Shown: positions 645 to 59,626 of the stretch, one piece after another
Layout: the number at the start of each line of letters is the position of its first letter
Numbering within the stretch: position 1 is the stretch's first letter
NCBI GenBank assembly: GCA_965197905.1
Contig: CBDAOB010000003.1
Coordinates: forward strand, 257,937 to 321,936
DNA length: 64,000 bases
Direction: 5' to 3'
Origin: Candidatus Latescibacterota bacterium
Lineage (GTDB): Bacteria; Latescibacterota; UBA2968; UBA8231
The notes under the pieces: model-generated
Database searches by the model: none
What the model was told of the DNA's origin: nothing
Seen by the model: the letters and a program-made list of their open reading frames with translations, nothing else
Position numbers and translations under genes: made by a program

Positions 645-2975
645 TCATTTTGGCTTCTTCGCTCGGGTACTTTGAAATAGCCCGTTGACCAGATCCACAA
701 TTGTGTCCTTGAGCAAGAGCGTTACCGCCACGAGCCGTTCCGCGGGTAGCTCATATCGCTCTTCGAGCGCCAGCAATTCCGGATTTTGGTCGCCCCGCGC
801 ATCCATGAACGTCTGAGACTCCTGCTCGCTAGTTTCGAGCGCCGTTGCGACCAACGCTTCTATACTTGCAGGCGTATACTCACCCGTCTCGCGCTCCTTC
901 TGGGATACGGAGACCTGCTCGCTATTTTTTTCAAATGCATCTGTCATCTGCTGGAAGAGTCTCGGTAAAGGGTTGCTGAGGAGTTCCTCGGCCACAATCG
1001 GTTTGAGGTGGGTTTCCCGATACTGAAATGGAATGTTGATCATGCGGGGGAAAGGACTGAACCCCTTCGTCAAGCAGTTGGCCAGAGCGATCAATGCCGT
1101 TTCACCTTCGGCTTCCGAGTCGATATGGTGATGATTGCGAATCGGTTCGATGAGTTCCGGGAAGATCTCCCACTGTGCCAGTAACGCACCCCCGGTGACC
1201 GGATGCTGGAAATCACCGACTACCGCTTGCTCACTGGCAAGCAAACCACCTTGCCATTTTGTTCGTTCGATCTCGTACAACACAAGTGGGAATATGTCCT
1301 GGTATATGATCGTATTGAGCAGCTTTCCTACATCGTGCAATACACCGCAGGTGAAGCTGTTAAACTCTACCGGCACTGCCGTCACGTTCCACAACTTAAA
1401 ATGCTTTAAAATCTCTAGTATAAACGGCGGCAATTTAAGACTCTGGATAATCTCCTGCTCCTTGGGAGAGGGTTCCTCTACATTCAGGTTCAATATCTGC
1501 GCCATGTAGCCAACACTTGCACTGTGGAGAAAAAAATGTCGAACGTCGAATCCTGCCTGTTGGACCTTTTGTGTGAGCTCACTCATGGCCGTGCCCATGA
1601 TTATCTTTCGTGTTTCTTCCATTCCGATCATGGAAAGGGCACTTTCCAGCGTCTCGACACGCTGTCTGGCCGAATAACGTGCCAGATTTGAGGTGCGGAT
1701 GATGGAGCTCTGCAAGCCGCCATCGGGTTGAATTATTTTTGCCAGCTCGGTGTATCGCGCGCCCTGATCGATCGCCTGCAAGACCTGTTGGCACACGTGC
1801 GGAAAGCCCGGCAGAAGCTCCATGGCGATATGATCCTTTTCTAGCTTCTGGCGGATCTCATCTGGAGACAACATCTCGTTCTTAGCTGGCTGACCGTTGC
1901 TCAGCTTGGACTTGGTAGCAATGACCTCCTTCAAGTCTTGAGTAAAGAACTGGGACCAGAATTTTCTAGTCTCTTTGACATCCGCCGTAGCCTCACAACC
2001 CTTGACGCTAATCCTTTCTGAAAGCTGCATCAGATGGTCCCAGGAGAAATTCGTTTGGTCCGAATTGTGACATACAACTACATGGCGGTCTTCTCCCGAA
2101 TTCGCCATCATCCGTACTGTTGCTTCGCTTAAACCGGGTACGTTGGGACCGAAGATGATACTGCAAATCTGCCGAGAGAATCGCCGAGCATGTCTTGGAA
2201 TGTCAGCACTGTTGTTGGCCAGAGCGATTTCTATCCGGACGGGAGCCGACGAATCTTCCCCCAGTTGGCTATTCAATACCTTTTGAGCCGCATAAATGGT
2301 CCGAAAGTGGCGATAGGACTCAGCCGTCTTCAACAGATTTGGATCCTTGGGTATGGCCTCGCATACAATGACTATGAAGGGTTTTCCCTGAAGCTGATCG
2401 GCAGAGACACTTTTCTTGGGCCCCTTGGCATCTTTCGTATCGGATTCTGTTCGCGGTGAAGCAGCATGGTCGGCGTCGAGCGCAGACTCTGGAGGTTCTA
2501 GCAAACCGTCGATCGCGGTTCGCAAGTCGAAAGAGGTGCCGAGCTCCTCTTCCATCCGCAATATGGAATCCGCAAACGTTCGCTGAGCGCGTTCTGTTTC
2601 CTTTGCGTGCTCCGCTAGGGCGTATTCGACCGACTTTTTCAAGTCGTTTATCCTGAACGGTTTTGTCAGGAATTCTCCAACCCCTTTGTGGACCGCATCA
2701 ATGGCCAATTCCATGGTCGGAAATCCGGTCATGATTACAAACGCCATATCCGGCTGAATCTTCTTGATACGATCAATCAACAGATCTCCTGATATTCCCG
2801 GCATTCTGATGTCCGTGATCACCAGATCGAATCTTTGGCCCTGGACCATCTCAAGAGCCTGTTCCCCATCTTCAGCAGATTGAACGCGGAAGCCAGCGTT
2901 CTCGAGAACACTCGTACACATGGTGCGAATCTTCTCCTGATCTTCCACTATGAGGATGTCGTTTCGGGCAGTCAT
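645..2975 (-). CDS. response regulator: N-terminal CheY-like receiver plus C-terminal HDOD domain
   Basis: N-terminus ILIVEDQ...DLVITDIRMPGISG...TKPF is a receiver with the phospho-Asp motif; C-terminus LLPGFPHVCQQVL...ANSARY...LHDVGKLL...NHHHIDSE matches the HDOD pattern; 776 aa. Confidence 0.7.
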   Translation of the reverse strand: MTARNDILIVEDQEKIRTMCTSVLENAGFRVQSAEDGEQALEMVQGQRFDLVITDIRMPGISGDLLIDRIKKIQPDMAFVIMTGFPTMELAIDAVHKGVGEFLTKPFRINDLKKSVEYALAEHAKETERAQRTFADSILRMEEELGTSFDLRTAIDGLLEPPESALDADHAASPRTESDTKDAKGPKKSVSADQLQGKPFIVIVCEAIPKDPNLLKTAESYRHFRTIYAAQKVLNSQLGEDSSAPVRIEIALANNSADIPRHARRFSRQICSIIFGPNVPGLSEATVRMMANSGEDRHVVVCHNSDQTNFSWDHLMQLSERISVKGCEATADVKETRKFWSQFFTQDLKEVIATKSKLSNGQPAKNEMLSPDEIRQKLEKDHIAMELLPGFPHVCQQVLQAIDQGARYTELAKIIQPDGGLQSSIIRTSNLARYSARQRVETLESALSMIGMEETRKIIMGTAMSELTQKVQQAGFDVRHFFLHSASVGYMAQILNLNVEEPSPKEQEIIQSLKLPPFILEILKHFKLWNVTAVPVEFNSFTCGVLHDVGKLLNTIIYQDIFPLVLYEIERTKWQGGLLASEQAVVGDFQHPVTGGALLAQWEIFPELIEPIRNHHHIDSEAEGETALIALANCLTKGFSPFPRMINIPFQYRETHLKPIVAEELLSNPLPRLFQQMTDAFEKNSEQVSVSQKERETGEYTPASIEALVATALETSEQESQTFMDARGDQNPELLALEERYELPAERLVAVTLLLKDTIVDLVNGLFQSTRAKKPK

Positions 2976-3121
2976 TTTTTCATCGCAGAGGTGTGTGGAA
3001 AGTTCGGCGGCAAGATATAGCTTGGGCCGATGACGTTCGCCGAGCTTTACATGCTGTCGCTGGGCGATGAACAGTCACCATTGTACTATGACAAAATGTC
3101 GATCACATTCCTACTAGTAAA

Positions 3122-3139
3122 ATTACTAGTATTTCGCTC
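3122..3139. promoter_or_regulatory. perfect-arm palindrome ACTAGTAaaatTACTAGT in an AT-rich region upstream of the response-regulator gene
   Basis: 7-bp inverted arms with a 4-bp spacer, about 150 bp upstream of the start at 2975; candidate operator. Confidence 0.3.
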
Positions 3140-3619
3140 ACCATTTGTCTATTCGAGAGATTTTGTGTCTGTTTTTGATAAAGGAGGGTTTTGTTCTATA
3201 GTATTTTTCATGCGGCAAAACACCGCCAGCGATCTAGAGCCGGCCGGCGGGAGATCAGAAAGCTGCTTTCGAAATCGATGGGATATGTGAAAGAAGCGAT
3301 GTCTCGGAATTAGGCCGCATATCGCACTGCCTTGGGATCACACTAGTCGCAGCGGAACAGTCCTCCAGGTCACGCTCTATATTCGTTGGTCTTCAATTTC
3401 GGCTCATATCTTTTGGAAAATAGTAGGCTGCAATAACTGCTGCACCCCAATGGCCTCGTTGTGACCCGCTTCGTGCGCCCGACTCAGTCCTATGAGTCCT
3501 TTCTCCAAATATTCTTCGGTCAGCATCGTATGCCACTCCTCGATCCCCACGACCCCGGCGCAGCCAGGGCGCCATCAGTACACTTGCATAAAACTCCCGA
3601 TTTAAATTCTGGACAGACC

Positions 3620-4951
3620 CTAAGTCTCATTGAGGATGCTCATCAGAGATTGATTCTGATGTTCTGACATCCACAATGAGGTCAAATAGGCGGCTCCCGC
3701 CAAATACAAGTGTGCTTTCTGTGGATTCATCCAGCATCCATCGATACAGGCGCGAACGTATTTTACTAAATGGGCATCCCTTCGAATCGAGGCTTGGGTG
3801 GCAATCTCTGTAACCATGTCCAATCTGTGCTCAGGTGCCGTATGCCAAGCAACAGAGGCTGCATCAGAAGGTGAAGAATGCAGGGCTTCTGAAAAGGAGC
3901 CTGATACTTTAGGCGGTTCGAAATGGTAAGAGAAATCGGCTTGAGACAAAGCAGCTCTAAATCCTAACACCCAGCTCAAAGTAACCAAAGGCATTTGGAT
4001 ATCTTCGGGAATTATCGGACTCAAGGACCATGCGGCTTGGGGCAAATTGAGGCAATGTGTCCATCCATATTTTGAAAATTCGGTATTCTCTTGGAGCATC
4101 GATTGCACAGCTGTATTGAGAGTTAAGTTTAACAACACCTGGTTGAGTTGCTCCTTTGACATTGGAGGGATTCTAGGCAGGAAATCTTTGAGTAATTGGG
4201 CCTCTTCACCTACTTGAACGACGTTTCTAATGGCTAGGCTCTCCAGTTTTTGGCGTAATCTGGGCAGATGGTCAATGGCATCCCCCAGTTCTGATTCGAT
4301 GGATAGAATATCGACCTCTGGATTTGATCCCCCCGTTTCAAGCTCTACCAAATCGAAGAACTCATCTTGAATCATCACGTCGGTGTCTTGTGCAAATCCC
4401 CGAATCATCTCCCTTATCAATTTGAGCGAAGAATCGCCACCCTCTGCCCCCATAGCGGTCAAATTATGTACCCCGATATGGGCATGGGCAGCGCAGGCCA
4501 AGGTTCGGATGCTCTTTCCTACAATAGCTTCCAAAAGAACCTGATAGTCGAATTGTCTACACATCGAGACACAGAGGCAGTCAGCCCGCTCGACATCGCC
4601 TTCAGTAATAGCGCTTTGGAGCTGGTCGATTGCATTCCATCGATTTGGAAGATCTATGAGTTGTTGAGGCGGAGCTATAGTAGGGCCTTGGGCTTGGTAC
4701 CTGGCGCATAGACTGACCATTTGCATACGCGCCATTCTTCGTTCATCAGGTTTTACGAACGGCAGTAGTCTCTTTCGCGCCAATAACTGAAGTGGAGCGT
4801 GCATCGTAAAAGAGCTGCCATTTTCTGTCGGTTCCGAGACGTTTTCTGCGATCAGGCCAAACAGCTGATGGTCCGTCAATTGGTCCAGGTCTCGACTCTT
4901 GTACTCGGTCTCGACTTTTTTGGGGTCTATGCCACTGAGAACGTTGTACAT
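3620..4951 (-). CDS. hypothetical protein
   Basis: long ORF; the listed start (5110) overlaps the upstream VOC gene; internal ATG at 4951 preceded by AAGGGAG; no family recognised. Confidence 0.4.
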   Translation of the reverse strand: MYNVLSGIDPKKVETEYKSRDLDQLTDHQLFGLIAENVSEPTENGSSFTMHAPLQLLARKRLLPFVKPDERRMARMQMVSLCARYQAQGPTIAPPQQLIDLPNRWNAIDQLQSAITEGDVERADCLCVSMCRQFDYQVLLEAIVGKSIRTLACAAHAHIGVHNLTAMGAEGGDSSLKLIREMIRGFAQDTDVMIQDEFFDLVELETGGSNPEVDILSIESELGDAIDHLPRLRQKLESLAIRNVVQVGEEAQLLKDFLPRIPPMSKEQLNQVLLNLTLNTAVQSMLQENTEFSKYGWTHCLNLPQAAWSLSPIIPEDIQMPLVTLSWVLGFRAALSQADFSYHFEPPKVSGSFSEALHSSPSDAASVAWHTAPEHRLDMVTEIATQASIRRDAHLVKYVRACIDGCWMNPQKAHLYLAGAAYLTSLWMSEHQNQSLMSILNET

Positions 4952-18365: not shown

Positions 18366-18482
18366 AGTCTATTCGAGCTATAATCAAAAGGTGTGGAAAT
18401 ACACAGAAGGCGATCCTACCCTTCCTTTGTAATTAGACATTACACGCGCCGGGGCTGTCCCGGCAGGAAGAGGAGAATCGCC

Positions 18483-19004
18483 ATGCCACAACCTAAGCTG
18501 AGCACCGCGGAAATGTCCATGCCCACGTTCGAAACGTTGGAAGCGTGGACGCGGTCGCAGATTCAGTCTTTGATGCAGTCGGTTTTGGATGAAGAAGTGA
18601 CGCAGGTGCTGGGGCGGTCGCGCTACCAGCGTCAGGCCCCGTTGGACGCACCCGGCGGCTATCGAAATGGCTACGGGAAGCGGCGGCGACTGTCCTGTAC
18701 CTCGGGCACGATCGAGGTAAAACGTCCACGCGTGCGAGGTCTGGAAGAGCGCTTCGAGAGCGCCATTCTGCCGCTGTTTGCGCGGCGTACGAAGGAGGTG
18801 GGTCAGCTGTTGCCGGAACTGTATCTGCACGGTCTGTCCCAAGGCGACTTCGAGCTGGCGCTGCGCGGCCTGCTGGGAGCGGGAGCGCCGCTGTCGCCGT
18901 CCTCAATCGCGCGTTTGCGGGATAAGTGGATCGTCGAATACCACGCCTGGCGCAGCCGACGGCTGGATGACCGCGAGCTGGTGTACGCCTGGGCCGACGG
19001 GATC
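18483..19004 (+). CDS. IS256-family (Mutator-like) transposase, exon 1
   Basis: MPQPKLS...LVYAWADGI ends in the first DDE-region motif; RBS GGAAGAGGAG; interrupted by the intron at 19005. Confidence 0.75.
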
Positions 19005-21145
19005 GTGCGCCACGAGGCGCCAGAGAACCGGGTGGGATGCAAGGACCCACCAACGGGCTGTCGCAGCAGCCCGTTGAAGCTGGAGGCAGCCTGACCCTGG
19101 GAGCGCAGGGGAAGGTGGAAGCAGCCTCGACAACGACAGAGTGGAGTGGCACCTCCAGACACTCCACGTCTGGCAAGCAAGACGGAATGGTGTAACCCGA
19201 AGTGAACCAGTGATGGAACCCCCTTTAGCGGCCCGCCAACCCAAACCTGGTGGATAAGGGTTGGTACGCAACGCACGTGGTCGGATATATGACCGACTGC
19301 GACTCTGGGGAGGTGTGATACCCACCGAAGCAGAGGCCTTGGAGAATGCCTGCGGCGTACCCAAGGCGAAGTTGCAGGGGAAAAGCTGGGCACCTCCCCC
19401 GTCAAACGGTTCATGGTGAACGTGGGAACCGAGCCGAGTCCGACCGTTATCGGGGCAGCGCGCTGTCCGCTGTGGGGCTTGGCAAGGGACGGAGCCTCTG
19501 TAGTAGTCCGCGAGCGGGAAAGCCGCTTACATGGCGAAGGGAGGCAGCAAGTTGCGCAGTGGGGTACTGGAAAAACAGGAGGACGCCGGTGAATGCCAGC
19601 GCTTCGTGGCCCGAGGCAGAACAAGCCCGTAATCGAGTACTGGAAATCCAGACCAAACTGCACCGTTGGGCTGTAGAGGATCGAAGCAAGTGCTTCGACG
19701 ACCTGTTCAACCTGGTGTGTGACCCGGCGTTTTTGAGTGTAGCCTGGCGTCGGGTGCGCAGCAACAAGGGTGCTCGTTCGGCCGGAGTGGACGGACAAAC
19801 GGCCTACTCTGTGGAGACGGAACGCGGCGAGGAGGCCTTTCTCGCCGAGGTGCGGGTTGATCTGAAGACCCGCAGTTTCCGGCCTCTGCCCGTACGCGAG
19901 CGGTTGATTCCGAAACCTGGCACAACGAAGAAGCGCCGGCTCGGCATCCCAACCGCTCGGGACCGAGTGGTCCAAGCCGCACTCAAGCTGGTGCTCGAAC
20001 CGATCTTCGAAGCGGACTTCAAGCCGTGCTCCTACGGCTTCCGCCCGAATCGGCGGGCTCAGGACGCCATCGCCGAGATTCATCAATTCTGCTCCCGCTC
20101 TTATGAGTGGGTGGTGGAGGGCGATATCCGTGCTTGTTTCGATGAGATTGATCACGCAGCCCTCTTGGACCGCGTGCGTCGACGTATCGGTGATAAGCAT
20201 GTTCTGAGGCTTGTAAAAGCGTTCTGCAAGGCCGGTGTCCTCACGGAACAATCGGTGTTGCAAGAAAGCACTTCGGGCACTCCGCAAGGCGGTATTCTCT
20301 CACCGCTGGTGGCAAATATCGCCTTATCCGTCCTCGACGATTATTTCACTGAGGTCTGGAGAAAGGTGGGCGCTACCTCCAGTGCGCGACAAGCGCATCG
20401 GCGAAAGGGGCTACCGACTTGTCGGCTTGTCCGTTACGCTGACGATTTCGTGCTGCTGGTGGCGGGCACCGAAGCTGCAGCGTATGACCTGCGCGACCAA
20501 GCGGGGGTGACTCTCACCCCCATGGGTCTGCACCTGTCGGAGACGAAGACCGCCATCACGCACATCAGCCGTGGCTTCGATTTCCTGGGTTTTCGCATTC
20601 AGAAGCGACGGAAACCGGGCCCGGTTGGCGCACGCATCTATACGTGGCCAAGAAAGGAATCTCTGGCCCGGTTGAAGAGCACGGTGCGCGCAGTCACGAG
20701 AACGGGTCGGCAGAGGCCGTTGAAGAGCCTTCTGCGCCAACTCAATCCGGTGTTGCGGGGGTGGGCCAACTACTTTCAGTACGGGGTGTCGAAGGCCACT
20801 TTCAACTACGTGCGGGGCTTCACTTGGCGCCGCGTAGTGCATTGGCTGCGCCGCAAGCACCCGCGCTTTAATTGGAGGAAGCTGAAACGCCGCTACCTGC
20901 CAGGATGGTGGCCCACCGAGGACGGGATTGCTCTTTACAACGTCGGCGAAGTAGCAGTGACTCGTTACCGCTATCGATCGGCGCGGATCCCTTCTCCCTG
21001 GCCTGCGACAACCGGATGAGACTCTGCGGTCACACGGCACCTTGTGGAGAGCCGGATGCGTGGTAACGCGCACGTCCGGTTCGGAGGGCGGGCCGGAGAA
21101 ACCCACATCACGCGTGTGGCGCAGGGCGCTCCGGTCCGACCCTAC
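19005..21145 (+). mobile_element. group II intron, RT-encoding
   Basis: 5' GUGCGCC immediately after the exon codon ATC; domain V GAGCCGGAUGCGUGGUAACGCGCACGUCCGGUUC at 21049-21082; 3' end ...CGACCCUAC; removal restores the in-frame ...WADGI|YVKAGLEK... of IS256 transposases. Confidence 0.85.
19583..21019 (+). CDS. group II intron reverse transcriptase/maturase (no endonuclease domain)
   Basis: RT motifs 0-7 including FRPNRRAQDA, QGGILSPLVANI and YADDFVLL; X/maturase domain RGWANYFQYGV; GTG start after AGGAGG; the ORF-track start at 19346 is probably too far upstream. Confidence 0.8.
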   Translation, partial: TPVNASASWPEAEQARNRVLEIQTKLHRWAVEDRSKCFDDLFNLVCDPAFLSVAWRRVRSNKGARSAGVDGQTAYSVETERGEEAFLAEVRVDLKTRSFRPLPVRERLIPKPGTTKKRRLGIPTARDRVVQAALKLVLEPIFEADFKPCSYGFRPNRRAQDAIAEIHQFCSRSYEWVVEGDIRACFDEIDHAALLDRVRRRIGDKHVLRLVKAFCKAGVLTEQSVLQESTSGTPQGGILSPLVANIALSVLDDYFTEVWRKVGATSSARQAHRRKGLPTCRLVRYADDFVLLVAGTEAAAYDLRDQAGVTLTPMGLHLSETKTAITHISRGFDFLGFRIQKRRKPGPVGARIYTWPRKESLARLKSTVRAVTRTGRQRPLKSLLRQLNPVLRGWANYFQYGVSKATFNYVRGFTWRRVVHWLRRKHPRFNWRKLKRRYLPGWWPTEDGIALYNVGEVAVTRYRYRSARIPSPWPATTG

Positions 21146-21862
21146 TACGTCAAAGCCGGGCTCGAGAAAGAAAAGGCCGCTCTCCTGGTGGTCATCGGCG
21201 CCATGAGCGATGGGCGCAAGGAAGTCTTGACGATTGTCCCAGGCTATCGCGAATCGAAGGAGTCGTGGACGAGCGTGCTGCGCGATTTGCGTGACCGCGG
21301 ACTGAGCGCGGCGAAGTTGTTGGTGGCGGATGGGCACCTGGGTATTTGGGCCGCCCTGGCGCAGGTCTGGCCGGAGACGGCGGAACAGCGGTGCTGGAAT
21401 CACCGCCTCCTGAACGTGTTGGATAAGCTGCCTAAACGCGTGCAGGCCGAAGCGCGGCAACTGCTGACACAGATCCCCTACGCGCCGACCCGTCAAGACG
21501 CGACCAAACGCCGCGATCAATTCGCCAAACGATTCCACCGCGAATGCCCAGACGCCGTAGATATCCTCGAGCGCGATTGGGACCGTATGGTGGCATTCTA
21601 CGACTTTCCCGAGGCCCACTGGCAACACCTGCGCACTACCAACGTCGTTGAAAGTCCCTTCGCTTCGGTACGGCTGCGAACCAATGCGGCCAAGCGCTAC
21701 AAGAAGGTGGCCAATGCCACCGCCCTCATATGGCGGGTACTGATGGTGGCCGAGAAACGATTTCGCCGACTCCGTGCACCGCATCTTATGGCTGACGTGT
21801 ACGCCAATGTGCGCTACGAAAATGGATCACACATCGCGCAAAGGAAGAAGATTGCCGCCTGA
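21146..21862 (+). CDS. IS256-family transposase, exon 2
   Basis: YVKAGLEKEKAALLVVIGAMSDGRKEVL...VADGHLG...CWNHRLLN...TTNVVESPF are conserved IS256 Tnp motifs. Confidence 0.75.
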   Translation, partial: YVKAGLEKEKAALLVVIGAMSDGRKEVLTIVPGYRESKESWTSVLRDLRDRGLSAAKLLVADGHLGIWAALAQVWPETAEQRCWNHRLLNVLDKLPKRVQAEARQLLTQIPYAPTRQDATKRRDQFAKRFHRECPDAVDILERDWDRMVAFYDFPEAHWQHLRTTNVVESPFASVRLRTNAAKRYKKVANATALIWRVLMVAEKRFRRLRAPHLMADVYANVRYENGSHIAQRKKIAA

Positions 21863-21918
21863 GTCGTTTACACACCATTTGACCCAAGCTCGTCTATTCC
21901 TTAGTAGAGCTTACCTGC

Positions 21919-35181: not shown

Positions 35182-35275
35182 TCCCATAACGTTCTCGCCG
35201 TGACCGAACCGCGAATGCGGTTGCGCGAAGGGCGCGAGCCCGAGCCGGGCCACGGAGGTGTTACAGGACGTGGGG
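35182..35275. repeat. attC-like element, family A
   Basis: ccATAACgttctcgccgtgaccgaaccgcgaatgcggttgcgcgaagggcg...GTTACAGgacgtgg. Confidence 0.55.
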
Positions 35276-41702: not shown

Positions 41703-42008
41703 CTATTTAGTTGCAGAGCGCGGTCGGACTTCTCGACTTAGGCGTTCTGCAAGCGCATCCTCCGCTTGATCGAGCTCATAGTCCATTTGAAGACCAAGCC
41801 AGAACTGGGGTGACATGTCGAAGTAACGGGCTAAACGCAATGCCGTATCGGCCGTAACACCTCTCTTGCCCAAGGCAATCTCGTTGATTCGGCGCGGTGG
41901 TACGCCAAGGGCCAGTGCCAACCGGTTCTGACTGAGTTCCATTGGCTTGAGAAATTCTTCCAACAGGACTTCGCCGGGATGTAATGGGGTTATTTTCTTC
42001 TTTGCCAC
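41703..42008 (-). CDS. higA: HigA-family antitoxin (XRE HTH)
   Basis: HPGEVLLEEFLKPMELSQNRLALALGVPPRRINEIALGKRGVTADTALRLARYF; directly downstream of higB. Confidence 0.75.
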   Translation of the reverse strand: MAKKKITPLHPGEVLLEEFLKPMELSQNRLALALGVPPRRINEIALGKRGVTADTALRLARYFDMSPQFWLGLQMDYELDQAEDALAERLSREVRPRSATK

Positions 42009-42017
42009 GGTAGCCTC

Positions 42018-42299
42018 CTAGTGATAATCTGCAATTTTCACGTTGTAGGCGTCACCGCCTTGCCAATCAAAGCAGATGCGCCATTGGTCATTGATTCGAA
42101 TACTGTATTGTCCAATTCTGCCGCCCCGCAGCTTCTTTAAGCGATTTGCCGGCGGCACCCTCGGATCGTTCAATGTCATCGACCGGTTTAGCATACGGAG
42201 TTTGCGAAACGCAACGGATTGAATGGCGCGCGGCAATTTTCGTGAGCCTTGGCGCGAAAAGATGCGTTCAGTCTCCCGATCGCGAAATGACCTGATCAT
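42018..42299 (-). CDS. higB: HigB-family toxin (RelE/ParE superfamily)
   Basis: MIRSFRDRETERIF...QYSIRINDQWRICFDWQGGDAYNVKIADYH; 10-bp gap to higA. Confidence 0.7.
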   Translation of the reverse strand: MIRSFRDRETERIFSRQGSRKLPRAIQSVAFRKLRMLNRSMTLNDPRVPPANRLKKLRGGRIGQYSIRINDQWRICFDWQGGDAYNVKIADYH

Positions 42300-42394
42300 A
42301 CCACAATTATATAACGCACTACGTTTAACGCAACCCGTTATGACGATGACATGCCTTAAAGTTGCGAACCAGTGTTTTCGCAATGACCTATGAC

Positions 42395-42470: not shown

Positions 42471-43220
42471 GGTAGGGTCGAGAACTGGCGCGCCAGCCTT
42501 AGGGTTCGGTGGGTTCCCCATGGCTTTCGCCATAGCCCTCAGTCCGACTCCCATCGCTACGTTTCCAGTTCCCGCCGCCTCAAACCGGACGTGCGGATCT
42601 CCCGCATCCGGCTTCCCGACGAACGTCACATCCAGGCACACGCCACAAGGACTTCACCTGGTAGTCAAGCTGCTTCCGATGCATACTAGTCTTACTGCTG
42701 GAGGCAATAGGCTCACGCCACTCTCCAACCCTCTGCACTTCCGCAGCATGTCCGAAGTCAGGCCCCTTCCCTCCACCGGAGTTACCCGGCTTCCTCGGTA
42801 CTACGCGCCTGTCCGCCACCTCATCCAGCCCAGTCTGGCCCTCGCGGGTTACCGGTTGGAGGCACTCGCTGCTTCCACCGGATGAGGCTTCCCGTGTTGC
42901 GCCACATCTCCTCTTACACACATGCTGTCGCCACTACCCCGGCGGAACAGCTGGGTGCGCTTGTCGCTCGACTTCCCCAGCTGCAGCGGCCTTCCCTGGT
43001 TTACGGGCAGGTCGGCTTCCGCATTACACTTTTCGAGGCCTGCTCAGCGTTTACTCACGTTACGGCCTGTGTGCTCGCCAAGTCGCCCAAGGCGACCCTC
43101 TACACCGGAGGCTTCAGCGGCTTCGTCGCCTCCACCACTGCTCCGATTGCTACCGGCTGGAGCGACCCTTGCCGGGTGGGATTCGCACCCACTGAAGATG
43201 TGCGCCTTAGCACGGCGCAC
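42471..43220 (-). mobile_element. ORF-less group II intron (about 750 nt) inserted into an attC-like repeat element
   Basis: on the minus strand: 5' GUGCGCC (rc of 43214-43220), domain V GAAGCCGGAUGCGGGAGAUCCGCACGUCCGGUUUG (rc of about 42591-42635), 3' end ...CGACCCUAC, the same terminus as the IS-borne intron. No ORF over 115 aa. Splits a family-B repeat into 42395-42470 and 43221-43262. Confidence 0.75.
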
Positions 43221-52565: not shown

Positions 52566-52655
52566 TTGTCGTCTAACGTTCTCGCCGTGCCCGAACCGCG
52601 AAAGCGGTTCCGCGAAGGGCGAACGCCCGAAGCCGGGCACGGACGTGTCGTATGT
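52566..52655. repeat. attC-like element, family A
   Basis: tgtcgtcTAACgttctcgccgtgcccgaaccgcgaaagcggttccgcgaagggcgaacgcccgaagccgggcacggacgtgtcg. Confidence 0.55.
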
Positions 52656-55069: not shown

Positions 55070-55172
55070 TGTCATTTAACGTTCTCGCCGTGCCCGAACC
55101 GCGAATGCGGTTGCGCGAAGGGCGAATGCCCGAAGCCGGGCCACGGGCATGTTAAGTGACGTGGGACCTACT
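55070..55172. repeat. attC-like element, family A (best-preserved copy)
   Basis: tgtcATTTAACgttctcgccgtgcccgaaccgcgaatgcggttgcgcgaagggcgaatgcccgaagccgggccacgggcatGTTAAGTgacgtggg: two internal GAAT-loop hairpins. Confidence 0.6.
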
Positions 55173-56076: not shown

Positions 56077-56109
56077 CCCATGTCACTTAACGTTCTTCGT
56101 GTCCCCGAA
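56077..56109. repeat. attC-like element, family A, truncated by IS256 copy 2
   Basis: catgtcACTTAACgttcttcgtgtccccgaa followed directly by the IS left IR; 16 bp upstream of the exonuclease start. Confidence 0.5.
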
Positions 56110-56217
56110 GAGCTATAATCAAAAGGTGTGGAAATACACAGAAGGCGATCCTACCCTTCCTTTGTAATTAGACATTACACGCGCCGGGGCTGTCCCGGCA
56201 GGAAGAGGAGAATCGCC

Positions 56218-56739
56218 ATGCCACAACCTAAGCTGAGCACCGCGGAAATGTCCATGCCCACGTTCGAAACGTTGGAAGCGTGGACGCGGTCGCAGATTCA
56301 GTCTTTGATGCAGTCGGTTTTGGATGAAGAAGTGACGCAGGTGCTGGGGCGGTCGCGCTACCAGCGTCAGGCCCCGTTGGACGCACCCGGCGGCTATCGA
56401 AATGGCTACGGGAAGCGGCGGCGACTGTCCTGTACCTCGGGCACGATCGAGGTAAAACGTCCACGCGTGCGAGGTCTGGAAGAGCGCTTCGAGAGCGCCA
56501 TTCTGCCGCTGTTTGCGCGGCGTACGAAGGAGGTGGGTCAGCTGTTGCCGGAACTGTATCTGCACGGTCTGTCCCAAGGCGACTTCGAGCTGGCGCTGCG
56601 CGGCCTGCTGGGAGCGGGAGCGCCGCTGTCGCCGTCCTCAATCGCGCGTTTGCGGGATAAGTGGATCGTCGAATACCACGCCTGGCGCAGCCGACGGCTG
56701 GATGACCGCGAGCTGGTGTACGCCTGGGCCGACGGGATC
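56218..56739 (+). CDS. IS256-family transposase, exon 1 (copy 2)
   Basis: identical to 18483-19004. Confidence 0.75.
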
Positions 56740-58880
56740 GTGCGCCACGAGGCGCCAGAGAACCGGGTGGGATGCAAGGACCCACCAACGGGCTGTCGCA
56801 GCAGCCCGTTGAAGCTGGAGGCAGCCTGACCCTGGGAGCGCAGGGGAAGGTGGAAGCAGCCTCGACAACGACAGAGTGGAGTGGCACCTCCAGACACTCC
56901 ACGTCTGGCAAGCAAGACGGAATGGTGTAACCCGAAGTGAACCAGTGATGGAACCCCCTTTAGCGGCCCGCCAACCCAAACCTGGTGGATAAGGGTTGGT
57001 ACGCAACGCACGTGGTCGGATATATGACCGACTGCGACTCTGGGGAGGTGTGATACCCACCGAAGCAGAGGCCTTGGAGAATGCCTGCGGCGTACCCAAG
57101 GCGAAGTTGCAGGGGAAAAGCTGGGCACCTCCCCCGTCAAACGGTTCATGGTGAACGTGGGAACCGAGCCGAGTCCGACCGTTATCGGGGCAGCGCGCTG
57201 TCCGCTGTGGGGCTTGGCAAGGGACGGAGCCTCTGTAGTAGTCCGCGAGCGGGAAAGCCGCTTACATGGCGAAGGGAGGCAGCAAGTTGCGCAGTGGGGT
57301 ACTGGAAAAACAGGAGGACGCCGGTGAATGCCAGCGCTTCGTGGCCCGAGGCAGAACAAGCCCGTAATCGAGTACTGGAAATCCAGACCAAACTGCACCG
57401 TTGGGCTGTAGAGGATCGAAGCAAGTGCTTCGACGACCTGTTCAACCTGGTGTGTGACCCGGCGTTTTTGAGTGTAGCCTGGCGTCGGGTGCGCAGCAAC
57501 AAGGGTGCTCGTTCGGCCGGAGTGGACGGACAAACGGCCTACTCTGTGGAGACGGAACGCGGCGAGGAGGCCTTTCTCGCCGAGGTGCGGGTTGATCTGA
57601 AGACCCGCAGTTTCCGGCCTCTGCCCGTACGCGAGCGGTTGATTCCGAAACCTGGCACAACGAAGAAGCGCCGGCTCGGCATCCCAACCGCTCGGGACCG
57701 AGTGGTCCAAGCCGCACTCAAGCTGGTGCTCGAACCGATCTTCGAAGCGGACTTCAAGCCGTGCTCCTACGGCTTCCGCCCGAATCGGCGGGCTCAGGAC
57801 GCCATCGCCGAGATTCATCAATTCTGCTCCCGCTCTTATGAGTGGGTGGTGGAGGGCGATATCCGTGCTTGTTTCGATGAGATTGATCACGCAGCCCTCT
57901 TGGACCGCGTGCGTCGACGTATCGGTGATAAGCATGTTCTGAGGCTTGTAAAAGCGTTCTGCAAGGCCGGTGTCCTCACGGAACAATCGGTGTTGCAAGA
58001 AAGCACTTCGGGCACTCCGCAAGGCGGTATTCTCTCACCGCTGGTGGCAAATATCGCCTTATCCGTCCTCGACGATTATTTCACTGAGGTCTGGAGAAAG
58101 GTGGGCGCTACCTCCAGTGCGCGACAAGCGCATCGGCGAAAGGGGCTACCGACTTGTCGGCTTGTCCGTTACGCTGACGATTTCGTGCTGCTGGTGGCGG
58201 GCACCGAAGCTGCAGCGTATGACCTGCGCGACCAAGCGGGGGTGACTCTCACCCCCATGGGTCTGCACCTGTCGGAGACGAAGACCGCCATCACGCACAT
58301 CAGCCGTGGCTTCGATTTCCTGGGTTTTCGCATTCAGAAGCGACGGAAACCGGGCCCGGTTGGCGCACGCATCTATACGTGGCCAAGAAAGGAATCTCTG
58401 GCCCGGTTGAAGAGCACGGTGCGCGCAGTCACGAGAACGGGTCGGCAGAGGCCGTTGAAGAGCCTTCTGCGCCAACTCAATCCGGTGTTGCGGGGGTGGG
58501 CCAACTACTTTCAGTACGGGGTGTCGAAGGCCACTTTCAACTACGTGCGGGGCTTCACTTGGCGCCGCGTAGTGCATTGGCTGCGCCGCAAGCACCCGCG
58601 CTTTAATTGGAGGAAGCTGAAACGCCGCTACCTGCCAGGATGGTGGCCCACCGAGGACGGGATTGCTCTTTACAACGTCGGCGAAGTAGCAGTGACTCGT
58701 TACCGCTATCGATCGGCGCGGATCCCTTCTCCCTGGCCTGCGACAACCGGATGAGACTCTGCGGTCACACGGCACCTTGTGGAGAGCCGGATGCGTGGTA
58801 ACGCGCACGTCCGGTTCGGAGGGCGGGCCGGAGAAACCCACATCACGCGTGTGGCGCAGGGCGCTCCGGTCCGACCCTAC
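56740..58880 (+). mobile_element. group II intron, RT-encoding (copy 2)
   Basis: identical to 19005-21145. Confidence 0.85.
57318..58754 (+). CDS. group II intron RT/maturase (copy 2)
   Basis: identical to 19583-21019. Confidence 0.8.
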   Translation, partial: TPVNASASWPEAEQARNRVLEIQTKLHRWAVEDRSKCFDDLFNLVCDPAFLSVAWRRVRSNKGARSAGVDGQTAYSVETERGEEAFLAEVRVDLKTRSFRPLPVRERLIPKPGTTKKRRLGIPTARDRVVQAALKLVLEPIFEADFKPCSYGFRPNRRAQDAIAEIHQFCSRSYEWVVEGDIRACFDEIDHAALLDRVRRRIGDKHVLRLVKAFCKAGVLTEQSVLQESTSGTPQGGILSPLVANIALSVLDDYFTEVWRKVGATSSARQAHRRKGLPTCRLVRYADDFVLLVAGTEAAAYDLRDQAGVTLTPMGLHLSETKTAITHISRGFDFLGFRIQKRRKPGPVGARIYTWPRKESLARLKSTVRAVTRTGRQRPLKSLLRQLNPVLRGWANYFQYGVSKATFNYVRGFTWRRVVHWLRRKHPRFNWRKLKRRYLPGWWPTEDGIALYNVGEVAVTRYRYRSARIPSPWPATTG

Positions 58881-59597
58881 TACGTCAAAGCCGGGCTCGA
58901 GAAAGAAAAGGCCGCTCTCCTGGTGGTCATCGGCGCCATGAGCGATGGGCGCAAGGAAGTCTTGACGATTGTCCCAGGCTATCGCGAATCGAAGGAGTCG
59001 TGGACGAGCGTGCTGCGCGATTTGCGTGACCGCGGACTGAGCGCGGCGAAGTTGTTGGTGGCGGATGGGCACCTGGGTATTTGGGCCGCCCTGGCGCAGG
59101 TCTGGCCGGAGACGGCGGAACAGCGGTGCTGGAATCACCGCCTCCTGAACGTGTTGGATAAGCTGCCTAAACGCGTGCAGGCCGAAGCGCGGCAACTGCT
59201 GACACAGATCCCCTACGCGCCGACCCGTCAAGACGCGACCAAACGCCGCGATCAATTCGCCAAACGATTCCACCGCGAATGCCCAGACGCCGTAGATATC
59301 CTCGAGCGCGATTGGGACCGTATGGTGGCATTCTACGACTTTCCCGAGGCCCACTGGCAACACCTGCGCACTACCAACGTCGTTGAAAGTCCCTTCGCTT
59401 CGGTACGGCTGCGAACCAATGCGGCCAAGCGCTACAAGAAGGTGGCCAATGCCACCGCCCTCATATGGCGGGTACTGATGGTGGCCGAGAAACGATTTCG
59501 CCGACTCCGTGCACCGCATCTTATGGCTGACGTGTACGCCAATGTGCGCTACGAAAATGGATCACACATCGCGCAAAGGAAGAAGATTGCCGCCTGA
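58881..59597 (+). CDS. IS256-family transposase, exon 2 (copy 2)
   Basis: identical to 21146-21862. Confidence 0.75.
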   Translation, partial: YVKAGLEKEKAALLVVIGAMSDGRKEVLTIVPGYRESKESWTSVLRDLRDRGLSAAKLLVADGHLGIWAALAQVWPETAEQRCWNHRLLNVLDKLPKRVQAEARQLLTQIPYAPTRQDATKRRDQFAKRFHRECPDAVDILERDWDRMVAFYDFPEAHWQHLRTTNVVESPFASVRLRTNAAKRYKKVANATALIWRVLMVAEKRFRRLRAPHLMADVYANVRYENGSHIAQRKKIAA

Positions 59598-59626
59598 GTC
59601 GTTTACACACCATTTGACCCAAGCTC

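Follow-up and report, generated by a model that had tools for sequence, protein, structure and literature searches.

The window analysed here, the whole 64,000-nt stretch of contig CBDAOB010000003.1, carries two copies of a nested selfish element: a mobile group II intron lodged in the transposase gene of an insertion sequence (IS) of the IS256 type. From the comparison of these copies with related loci in public assemblies, we consider it probable that the IS reached its sites by transposition, leaving 8-bp target-site duplications (TSDs), and that the intron subsequently homed into the IS copies, an account which explains both window copies together with at least four further sites.

The two copies of the composite element are 100% identical over 3517 bp, as had been stated in an earlier note made from the DNA sequence alone, and lie in direct orientation (the BLAST alignment adds one chance base). 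Subtracting the intron (3517 − 2141) leaves an IS of 1376 bp with a single transposase open reading frame (ORF), the same length as that of its intronless relatives. Imperfect inverted repeats (IRs) of ~25 bp were found at both ends of each copy, and the first ~27 nt of both IRs equal those of intronless relatives whose transposases are 97–99% identical. Copy 1 is located between two convergently read genes and is flanked by a perfect 8-bp TSD, GTCTATTC, for which the chance probability is ~1/65,536. Direct comparison of the flanks revealed no TSD for copy 2, where the left flank ends in ..GTCCCCGAA and the right flank starts with GATGCTCT... The earlier note had likewise reported the perfect repeat at copy 1 alone and had left its lack at copy 2 unexplained; exchanged flanks, described below, now account for it.

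Joining the two exons (522 and 717 nt, 18483–19004 and 21146–21862) yields an open, in-frame transposase of 412 aa with the junction ..LVYAWADGI^YVKAGLEKEK.. (^ marks the intron position), as predicted from the sequence alone. The spliced protein matched the NCBIfam IS256 model NF033543 in one stretch, covering profile positions 1–336 of 338 with 299.6 bits (cut-off 150), and scored 199 bits against Pfam Transposase_mut. It is collinear with intronless relatives of 412 aa (P0001, 97% identical; P0134, ~99%), which amounts to the full-length alignment of about 410 aa without indel that the earlier note had proposed to look for. Together with the TSD, the IRs and the DDE and CxxH motifs, the profile match supports the assignment to the IS256 family. 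The window residues D172, D236, C257/H260 and E344 correspond to D175, D241, C262/H265 and E348 of ISCth4 TnpA, a solved IS256-family transposase (PMC7780238), where the assignment of D172 rests on the motif F/W-x-D-A/G-I/T, the ungapped HMMER alignment being two residues off at the first Asp. The intron is inserted in sense orientation two codons past D172 (WADGI) and thus inside the first DDE motif, in line with the earlier reading. Without splicing, the reading frame continues into the intron up to a stop codon at 19092–19094, giving 203 aa, of which 174 derive from exon 1 and 29 are intron-encoded; this exact product is recorded in public assemblies (P0121 in a protein-collection look-up).

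The boundaries of the intron, 19005–21145 as previously proposed, are set by its GUGCG start, by domain V (D5) at 21049–21082 and by an empty allele. Rfam model RF00029 matched D5 and domain VI (D6) at 21047–21145 with 57.3 bits (gathering score 40). The intronless locus L008 aligns to element coordinates 1–630 and 2771–3517; because it aligns across the empty site without an indel, the intron insertion is precise. None of the Rfam subfamilies for domains D1–D4 matched the window intron, even at E≤1. Recognition of the IIC type, with a short intron-binding site 1 (IBS1) and an upstream hairpin, was rejected in view of the 34-nt D5, the ribozyme of ~710 nt and a clear pairing of exon-binding site 2 (EBS2). 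The intron-encoded protein (IEP) contains the Pfam domains RVT_1 and GIIM only and scored 371 bits against TIGR04416 (cut-off 300). The Pfam scan gave no HNH match and ~40 aa remain after the X domain, consistent with the earlier description of a reverse transcriptase (RT) lacking an endonuclease domain. The closest solved RT is that of T.el4h (6me0). The same 476-aa IEP gene was called in five further loci carrying the composite (L001–L005).

Evidence for movement of the intron on its own comes from other hosts. The same intron, with 0–1 mismatches over 2141 nt, is found at this position in no fewer than four distinct IS256-family elements, the exons of the other hosts differing from those of the window by ~7% to >28%, and the identity stops ~10–15 nt from the intron ends. 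In two loci with a diverged IS variant, exon 1 differs from the window at 40 of 581 (L006) and 46 of 630 nt (L007), i.e. by ~7%, whereas in the intron segments that these loci contain the counts are 0/522, 1/499, 0/671 and 0/125 nt; going outwards from the intron, the first exon mismatches are met at −10 and +12. Both of these introns carry deletions (the L006 intron lacks IS coordinates 1153–1361 and ends at 1860, the L007 intron lacks 1302–2646), and one of the two is ORF-less, which we take as signs of intron decay after invasion. A look-up of the exact IEP led to L193, a 60.6-kb circular contig on which all 2141 nt of the intron are identical and the host is a clearly different IS256-family gene, recognisable at the protein level only (..KRYVYLWADGI^YFNVRLQKDRPCVLVVVGATEDGHKELL.., also read as ..YVYLWADGI^YFNVRLQKDRPC..); nucleotide identity outside the intron is limited to about −15 to +3. 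Likewise, the 52-kb circular contig L191, which encodes ParA and RepA_C, carries the intron with one mismatch next to an exon 1 that is 72% identical. Both contigs belong to ENA ERZ25067264 and are plasmid-like with ~30x coverage, and could plausibly carry the intron from one genome to another.

Because near-identical introns sit in exons that are diverged up to the boundary in at least four hosts, the intron, as judged from these alignments, demonstrably moves into this site on its own. The sharp boundaries of identity represent the signature of retrohoming and are not expected from co-inheritance or ordinary homologous recombination. A separate observation concerns L194 (ENA ERZ25072670 ctg253495), where the intron at 2417–4557 has one mismatch, exon 1 is of the window type and truncated at IS coordinate 153, and the exon on the 3' side belongs to an unrelated membrane-protein ORF (FRPIAEWSYALQF..). 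Recombination of an ectopic intron copy with an IS-borne one would account for this locus, as would a rearrangement of some other kind.

Target recognition was traced by covariation in 60 related introns, which fixed the EBS positions. Among the 59 of these relatives that have a mapped 5' end, 19 pair all six IBS1 positions with the EBS1 loop (~nt 305–320); the EBS2 segment lies at ~nt 224–231. The window intron forms all seven EBS2–IBS2 pairs, one of them G.U, and five of six EBS1–IBS1 pairs, with an internal mismatch between G(−4) and A316; EBS1 pairing would be perfect with GGUAUC, which encodes Gly-Ile as well. The hosts of this intron have no exon sequence in common other than TGGGCCGACGGGATC^TAC, which covers exactly the IBS elements. 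A plain search of domain I for the complement of the last 6 exon nt had returned no EBS1 candidate, and the minimum-free-energy fold of domain I was uninformative for EBS1.

Table 1 Features of the intron-bearing IS256-family element in the window (positions as in the window).
Feature	Position	Strand	Basis
Copy 1: IS256-family IS (1376 bp) with group II intron (2141 nt)	18375..21891	+	Identity to copy 2; IRs at the ends
Left 8-bp TSD of copy 1, GTCTATTC	18367..18374	.	Perfect match with right flank
Left IR (IRL), GAGCTATAATCAAAAGGTGTGGAAA	18375..18399	+	Identical in intronless relatives
Transposase exon 1, aa 1–174: N-terminal DNA-binding/dimerisation region and first catalytic Asp D172 (WADGI)	18483..19004	+	Translation; homology to D175 of ISCth4 TnpA
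5' part of homing site: IBS2 UGGGCCG (−15..−9), IBS1 GGGAUC (−6..−1)	18990..19004	+	Pairing with EBS2/EBS1
Group II intron, 2141 nt, IIB-like, ORF in domain IV	19005..21145	+	GUGCG 5' end; RF00029 D5–D6; absent in L008
EBS2, intron nt 225–231, CGGCCCG	19229..19235	+	Homologous position pairs with exon −15..−9 in at least 25 relatives of differing sequence
EBS1, intron nt 313–318, GAUACC, in a small hairpin loop	19317..19322	+	Covariation in relatives
IEP, 476 aa, GTG start, upstream AGGAGG ribosome-binding site, RT (YADD) and maturase X	19592..21019	+	Pfam, TIGR04416
Domain V, 34 nt, AGC triad	21049..21082	+	RF00029 alignment
Domain VI and 3' splice site, ending ..CCGACCCUAC (..CUAC)	21083..21145	+	RF00029 alignment; 3' end conserved in 80 related introns
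Transposase exon 2, aa 175–412: D236 (VADGH), C257/H260 (CWNH), E344 (NVVES)	21146..21862	+	Translation; comparison with ISCth4
Right IR (IRR), reverse complement GAGCTTGGGTCAAATGGTGTGTAAA	21867..21891	-	Comparison with IRL and intronless relatives
Right 8-bp TSD of copy 1, GTCTATTC	21892..21899	.	Perfect match with left flank
Copy 2: same composite, no TSD, flanks exchanged by IS–IS recombination	56110..59626	+	Identity to copy 1; flank comparison

These features suggest how the intron could spread. An endonuclease-less, IIB-like intron would find its site by RNA–DNA pairing, EBS2 with positions −15 to −9 and EBS1 with −6 to −1. The target stretch encodes W-A-D-G-I and is conserved across IS256-family elements because it encodes a catalytic motif; any IS copy with the site could be invaded by retrohoming, and by analogy with RmInt1, priming may take place at replication forks. 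In an occupied copy, the full transposase would be produced only from spliced mRNA, and unspliced mRNA would direct the synthesis of the 203-aa protein, which retains the DNA-binding amino terminus and D172 and is devoid of D236 and E344. The intron thus probably holds this IS subfamily back instead of aiding it.

Searching for P0121 identified the five loci L001–L005 in two ENA metagenome samples, with the same composite at 99.83–99.97% identity. L001 and L003 have perfect 8-bp TSDs of their own (AATGGACA and ACACAACA, respectively), and L002, from an independent assembly of another sample, represents the site of copy 2, aligning over 12.6 kb with 6 mismatches and 1 gap. The 9-mer GTCCCCGAA in the left flank of copy 2 (56101–56109) recurs as the right flank of L004 (7876–7884), and a right flank is common to L005 and L003. 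Because of these flanks in common, the copies without a TSD are products of homologous recombination between 3.5-kb IS copies, by which the flanks were reshuffled. TSDs are missing and flanks exchanged in half of the intron-bearing copies, compared to 5 of 22 intronless copies.

Intronless relatives are numerous. P0123 accounts for 10 sites, P0124 for 8 and P0126 for 3, and the nearest relatives of the IS are in a Candidatus Latescibacterota metagenome-assembled genome (MAG) with 19 copies of an 87–92% identical intronless IS. TSDs of 8–9 bp flank 17 of the 22 intronless copies of the P0123, P0124, P0126 and P0134 types (MAG copies left out), indicating that these relatives behave as an active IS256-type element. 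A contig scan of species-representative genomes yielded intronless relatives only. The search for intronless copies that had been suggested in the earlier note has a divided outcome: related ones are abundant, and an identical one is not on record.

The same note had concluded that the composite transposed after acquiring the intron. This conclusion is unproven: since a TSD testifies to transposition of the IS and to nothing more, the repeat around copy 1 leaves the intron undated, and the intron homes independently, as seen at L006/L007, L191 and L193. The retrohoming account has in turn to face several observations that weigh against it. The window-type copies have six distinct left junctions (copy 1, W1; copy 2, W2, equivalent to L002; L001, L003, L004 and L005) and all carry the intron, so homing alone requires complete saturation of the window-type copies, whereas full occupancy is exactly what transposition of the composite as a unit predicts. 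The window copies are identical and give no phylogenetic signal either way. The EBS1 mismatch at −4 should lower the efficiency of homing. The exact spliced 412-aa protein had no entry in an exact look-up of a collection of 15 billion proteins, and the 400-bp flanks of all 30 IS loci revealed no orthologous site with and without the intron. Because no such polymorphic site was found, the order of events was not directly observed; we infer it for this genome, as we do the level of splicing and the inhibitory effect. Single-base differences between the window-type copies amount to 1–5 each, too few to separate homing from transposition of the unit. W2 and L002 differ at 3 positions of the intron and, over 9.1 kb of flank, at 3 positions and by 1 gap, which is suggestive of a faster turnover of the intron and not statistically significant.

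The best surviving alternative, transposition of the whole unit, would have a founder copy acquire the intron and rare spliced mRNA, or transposase supplied in trans, move the 3517-bp composite. We regard it as possible and doubtful. In its favour, the IRs are intact, the composite has perfect 8-bp TSDs at copy 1, L001 and L003, no empty window-type copy is on record, and repeated homing would be hampered by the EBS1 mismatch. The IRs match those of intronless relatives with 97–99% identical transposases, rendering mobilisation in trans feasible, and with the intron, D5/D6 and the IEP all intact splicing is plausible. IS256 moves by a copy-out/paste-in mechanism and should tolerate internal cargo. 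However, the TSD does not date the intron, and transposition of the unit is not needed, given that the intron enters this site independently in at least four hosts. The frequency of occupied copies without a TSD, half of them against 5/22 of the intronless ones, fits older or immobile copies. Furthermore, the prolific subfamilies, with 10, 8 and 19 copies, are the intronless ones, and exon ligation was <1% in the one studied precedent (PMC3035460). On balance, transposition of the unit is less likely than retrohoming.

We consider it improbable that copy 2 stems from a segmental duplication or homologous recombination of an intron-bearing copy, with one or few true insertions overall. Its missing TSD and the flanks shared between copy 2 and L004 and between L005 and L003 would agree with such an origin; against this, the identity of copies 1 and 2 ends exactly at the IRs with no flanking DNA in common, three sites have independent perfect TSDs, and an exchange of flanks rearranges copies and creates none. 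An artefact of assembly or polishing, in which repeat collapse or consensus polishing produced the identity of the copies or placed the intron in both, might be suspected from perfect identity over 3.5 kb in a probably metagenome-derived assembly and is highly improbable, as the independent assembly L002 reproduces the copy 2 junctions and flanks over 12.6 kb and five further loci from two samples have the same structure.

Occupancy by the retrohoming intron can be compared with the base at position −10 (window 18995), the third, synonymous base of the Ala codon, which pairs with G226 of EBS2. The window-type copies, L191, L193 and L194 have C at this position (GCC) and are all occupied, whereas A or G is found in 41 of 41 empty copies from this IS lineage (L008, L009–L035, L170–L190). 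Copies with GCA or GCG are thus empty 41 times and occupied twice, the latter in A-type copies by the decayed introns of L006 and L007, in counts where the copies are not independent of one another and the empty ones may never have encountered the intron. The GCA/GCG subfamilies are also those that multiplied to 8–19 copies per genome or sample. This pattern is suggestive of homing that depends on target quality and possibly of escape by synonymous change. A tentative and rather unlikely extension is an arms race, in which the intron would act as a brake on IS256-family elements at the codons of the catalytic Asp and subfamilies would escape via synonymous changes of the Ala codon at −10 that disrupt the EBS2–IBS2 helix. 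Weaker still is a variant of this idea in which the occupied subfamily would continue to spread as a 3.5-kb composite, with splicing gating the transposase.

A scan of public metagenomes with the IEP identified 80 related introns with IEPs 56–69% identical and conserved ends (5' GUGCGCCACGAGGCGC, 3' ..CCGACCCUAC). About 11 of the 80 occupy the homologous codon in IS256-family genes only 21–44% identical to the window transposase, with junctions of the form W/F-x-D-A/G-x ^ Y/F-x-K-V. Based on Pfam matches of the reconstructed exons, other relatives reside in genes of the IS4/5 type (DDE_Tnp_1), IS110, ISL3, IS30, IS3 (rve) and IS630 (DDE_3), one in a phage-integrase gene and one in an ssb gene. 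The best annotated relative, on a Streptomyces plasmid and 59.7% identical, interrupts an IS3 transposase gene. As a side observation from the translations, the introns at L160, L154 and L118 lie near the third catalytic motif (E) and not at the first D, for example ..HWRKIWSTNP^ in an IS256-like gene and ..YFADP^.SPWQR.TNEN in an IS30-like gene.

Elsewhere in the window, a third group II intron of 749 nt, ORF-less and on the minus strand (42472–43220), starts with GUGCGCCGUG and ends in ..CUCGACCCUAC. It matched RF02003 (D1-D4-4) with 106.8 bits at 43055–43194 and RF00029 with 39.2 bits at 42504–42616, just below the gathering score of 40. At the nucleotide level it does not resemble the IS-borne intron, its flanks show no obvious ORF, and it might depend on an IEP supplied in trans. 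Beside it, also on the minus strand (41703–42383), two adjacent small ORFs encode 101 aa (helix-turn-helix antitoxin-like) and 121 aa (ending ..RINDQWRICFDW..), which, judged from their translations, look like a HigB/HigA-type toxin–antitoxin pair. Short dispersed repeats of ~77–90 bp, 88–92% alike (~35187–35274, 52567–52642 and 55070–55146; from secondary BLAST matches of the L002 flanks), may constitute a miniature repeat family.

The system represents a clean natural case in which one selfish element lives as a parasite on another, in a lineage that has received little study. At the level of the clade, endonuclease-less introns home to codons of catalytic or conserved motifs in many recombinase families, that is, to sites which the host element cannot easily change. 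Annotators should treat split Transposase_mut fragments on either side of an RT/maturase gene as a single gene interrupted by an intron and not as pseudogenes.

The closest known parallel is RmInt1 of Sinorhizobium meliloti, an intron with an endonuclease-less IEP and a natural target for homing within the transposase gene of ISRm2011-2 (PMC3035460, PMC4238363). Its stop codons truncate the transposase, splicing is stated to be essential for mobility of the IS, exon ligation amounts to 0.07%, and the intron has been proposed to limit IS spread (PMC3035460, PMC4238363). Both systems have an endonuclease-less IEP, IIB-type RNA and a homing site in an IS transposase ORF, and RmInt1 likewise occupies many IS copies through efficient retrohoming (PMC3035460, PMC4238363, PMC4615759). 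In contrast, the host of RmInt1 belongs to the IS630 family, whereas the window intron resides in the first catalytic-Asp motif of an IS256 element and in a host organism that is probably a member of the Latescibacterota. By this analogy, the window intron may be said to work like RmInt1, which is not a claim of class D membership, and the RmInt1/ISRm2011-2 paradigm is extended to the IS256 family. The RNA-level switch of transposition invoked in the earlier note is an existing hypothesis, proposed and tested for this pair (PMC3035460, PMC4238363); the idea of a splicing-dependent transposase is more than 25 years old, and nothing in our data overturns current understanding.

Relatives of RmInt1 include Sr.md.I1 in an IS66 transposase gene and RmInt2 in the IRs of ISRm17, and other class D introns reside in transposase or integrase genes (PMC4615759, PMC4238363). 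They resemble the present clade in that relatives differ in the mobile-element gene or end for which they are specialised; the hosts and sites of Sr.md.I1 and RmInt2 differ, whereas here several relatives reuse one codon position in divergent IS256-family genes. On the side of the host IS, the window element shares with ISCth4 and IS256 the DDE triad and CxxH motif, imperfect IRs, 8–9 bp TSDs, a length of ~1.4 kb and a single ORF (PMC7780238). The canonical elements differ in having an uninterrupted transposase gene. Ll.LtrB interrupts the ltrB relaxase gene of a Lactococcus conjugative element, the transfer of which depends on splicing. It is thus also a bacterial group II intron within a mobility gene of another mobile element, and its splicing efficiency has been compared with that of other introns (PMC3035460). 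What sets Ll.LtrB apart from the window intron is its endonuclease domain, its class (IIA), its efficient splicing and its host, a conjugative element instead of an IS.

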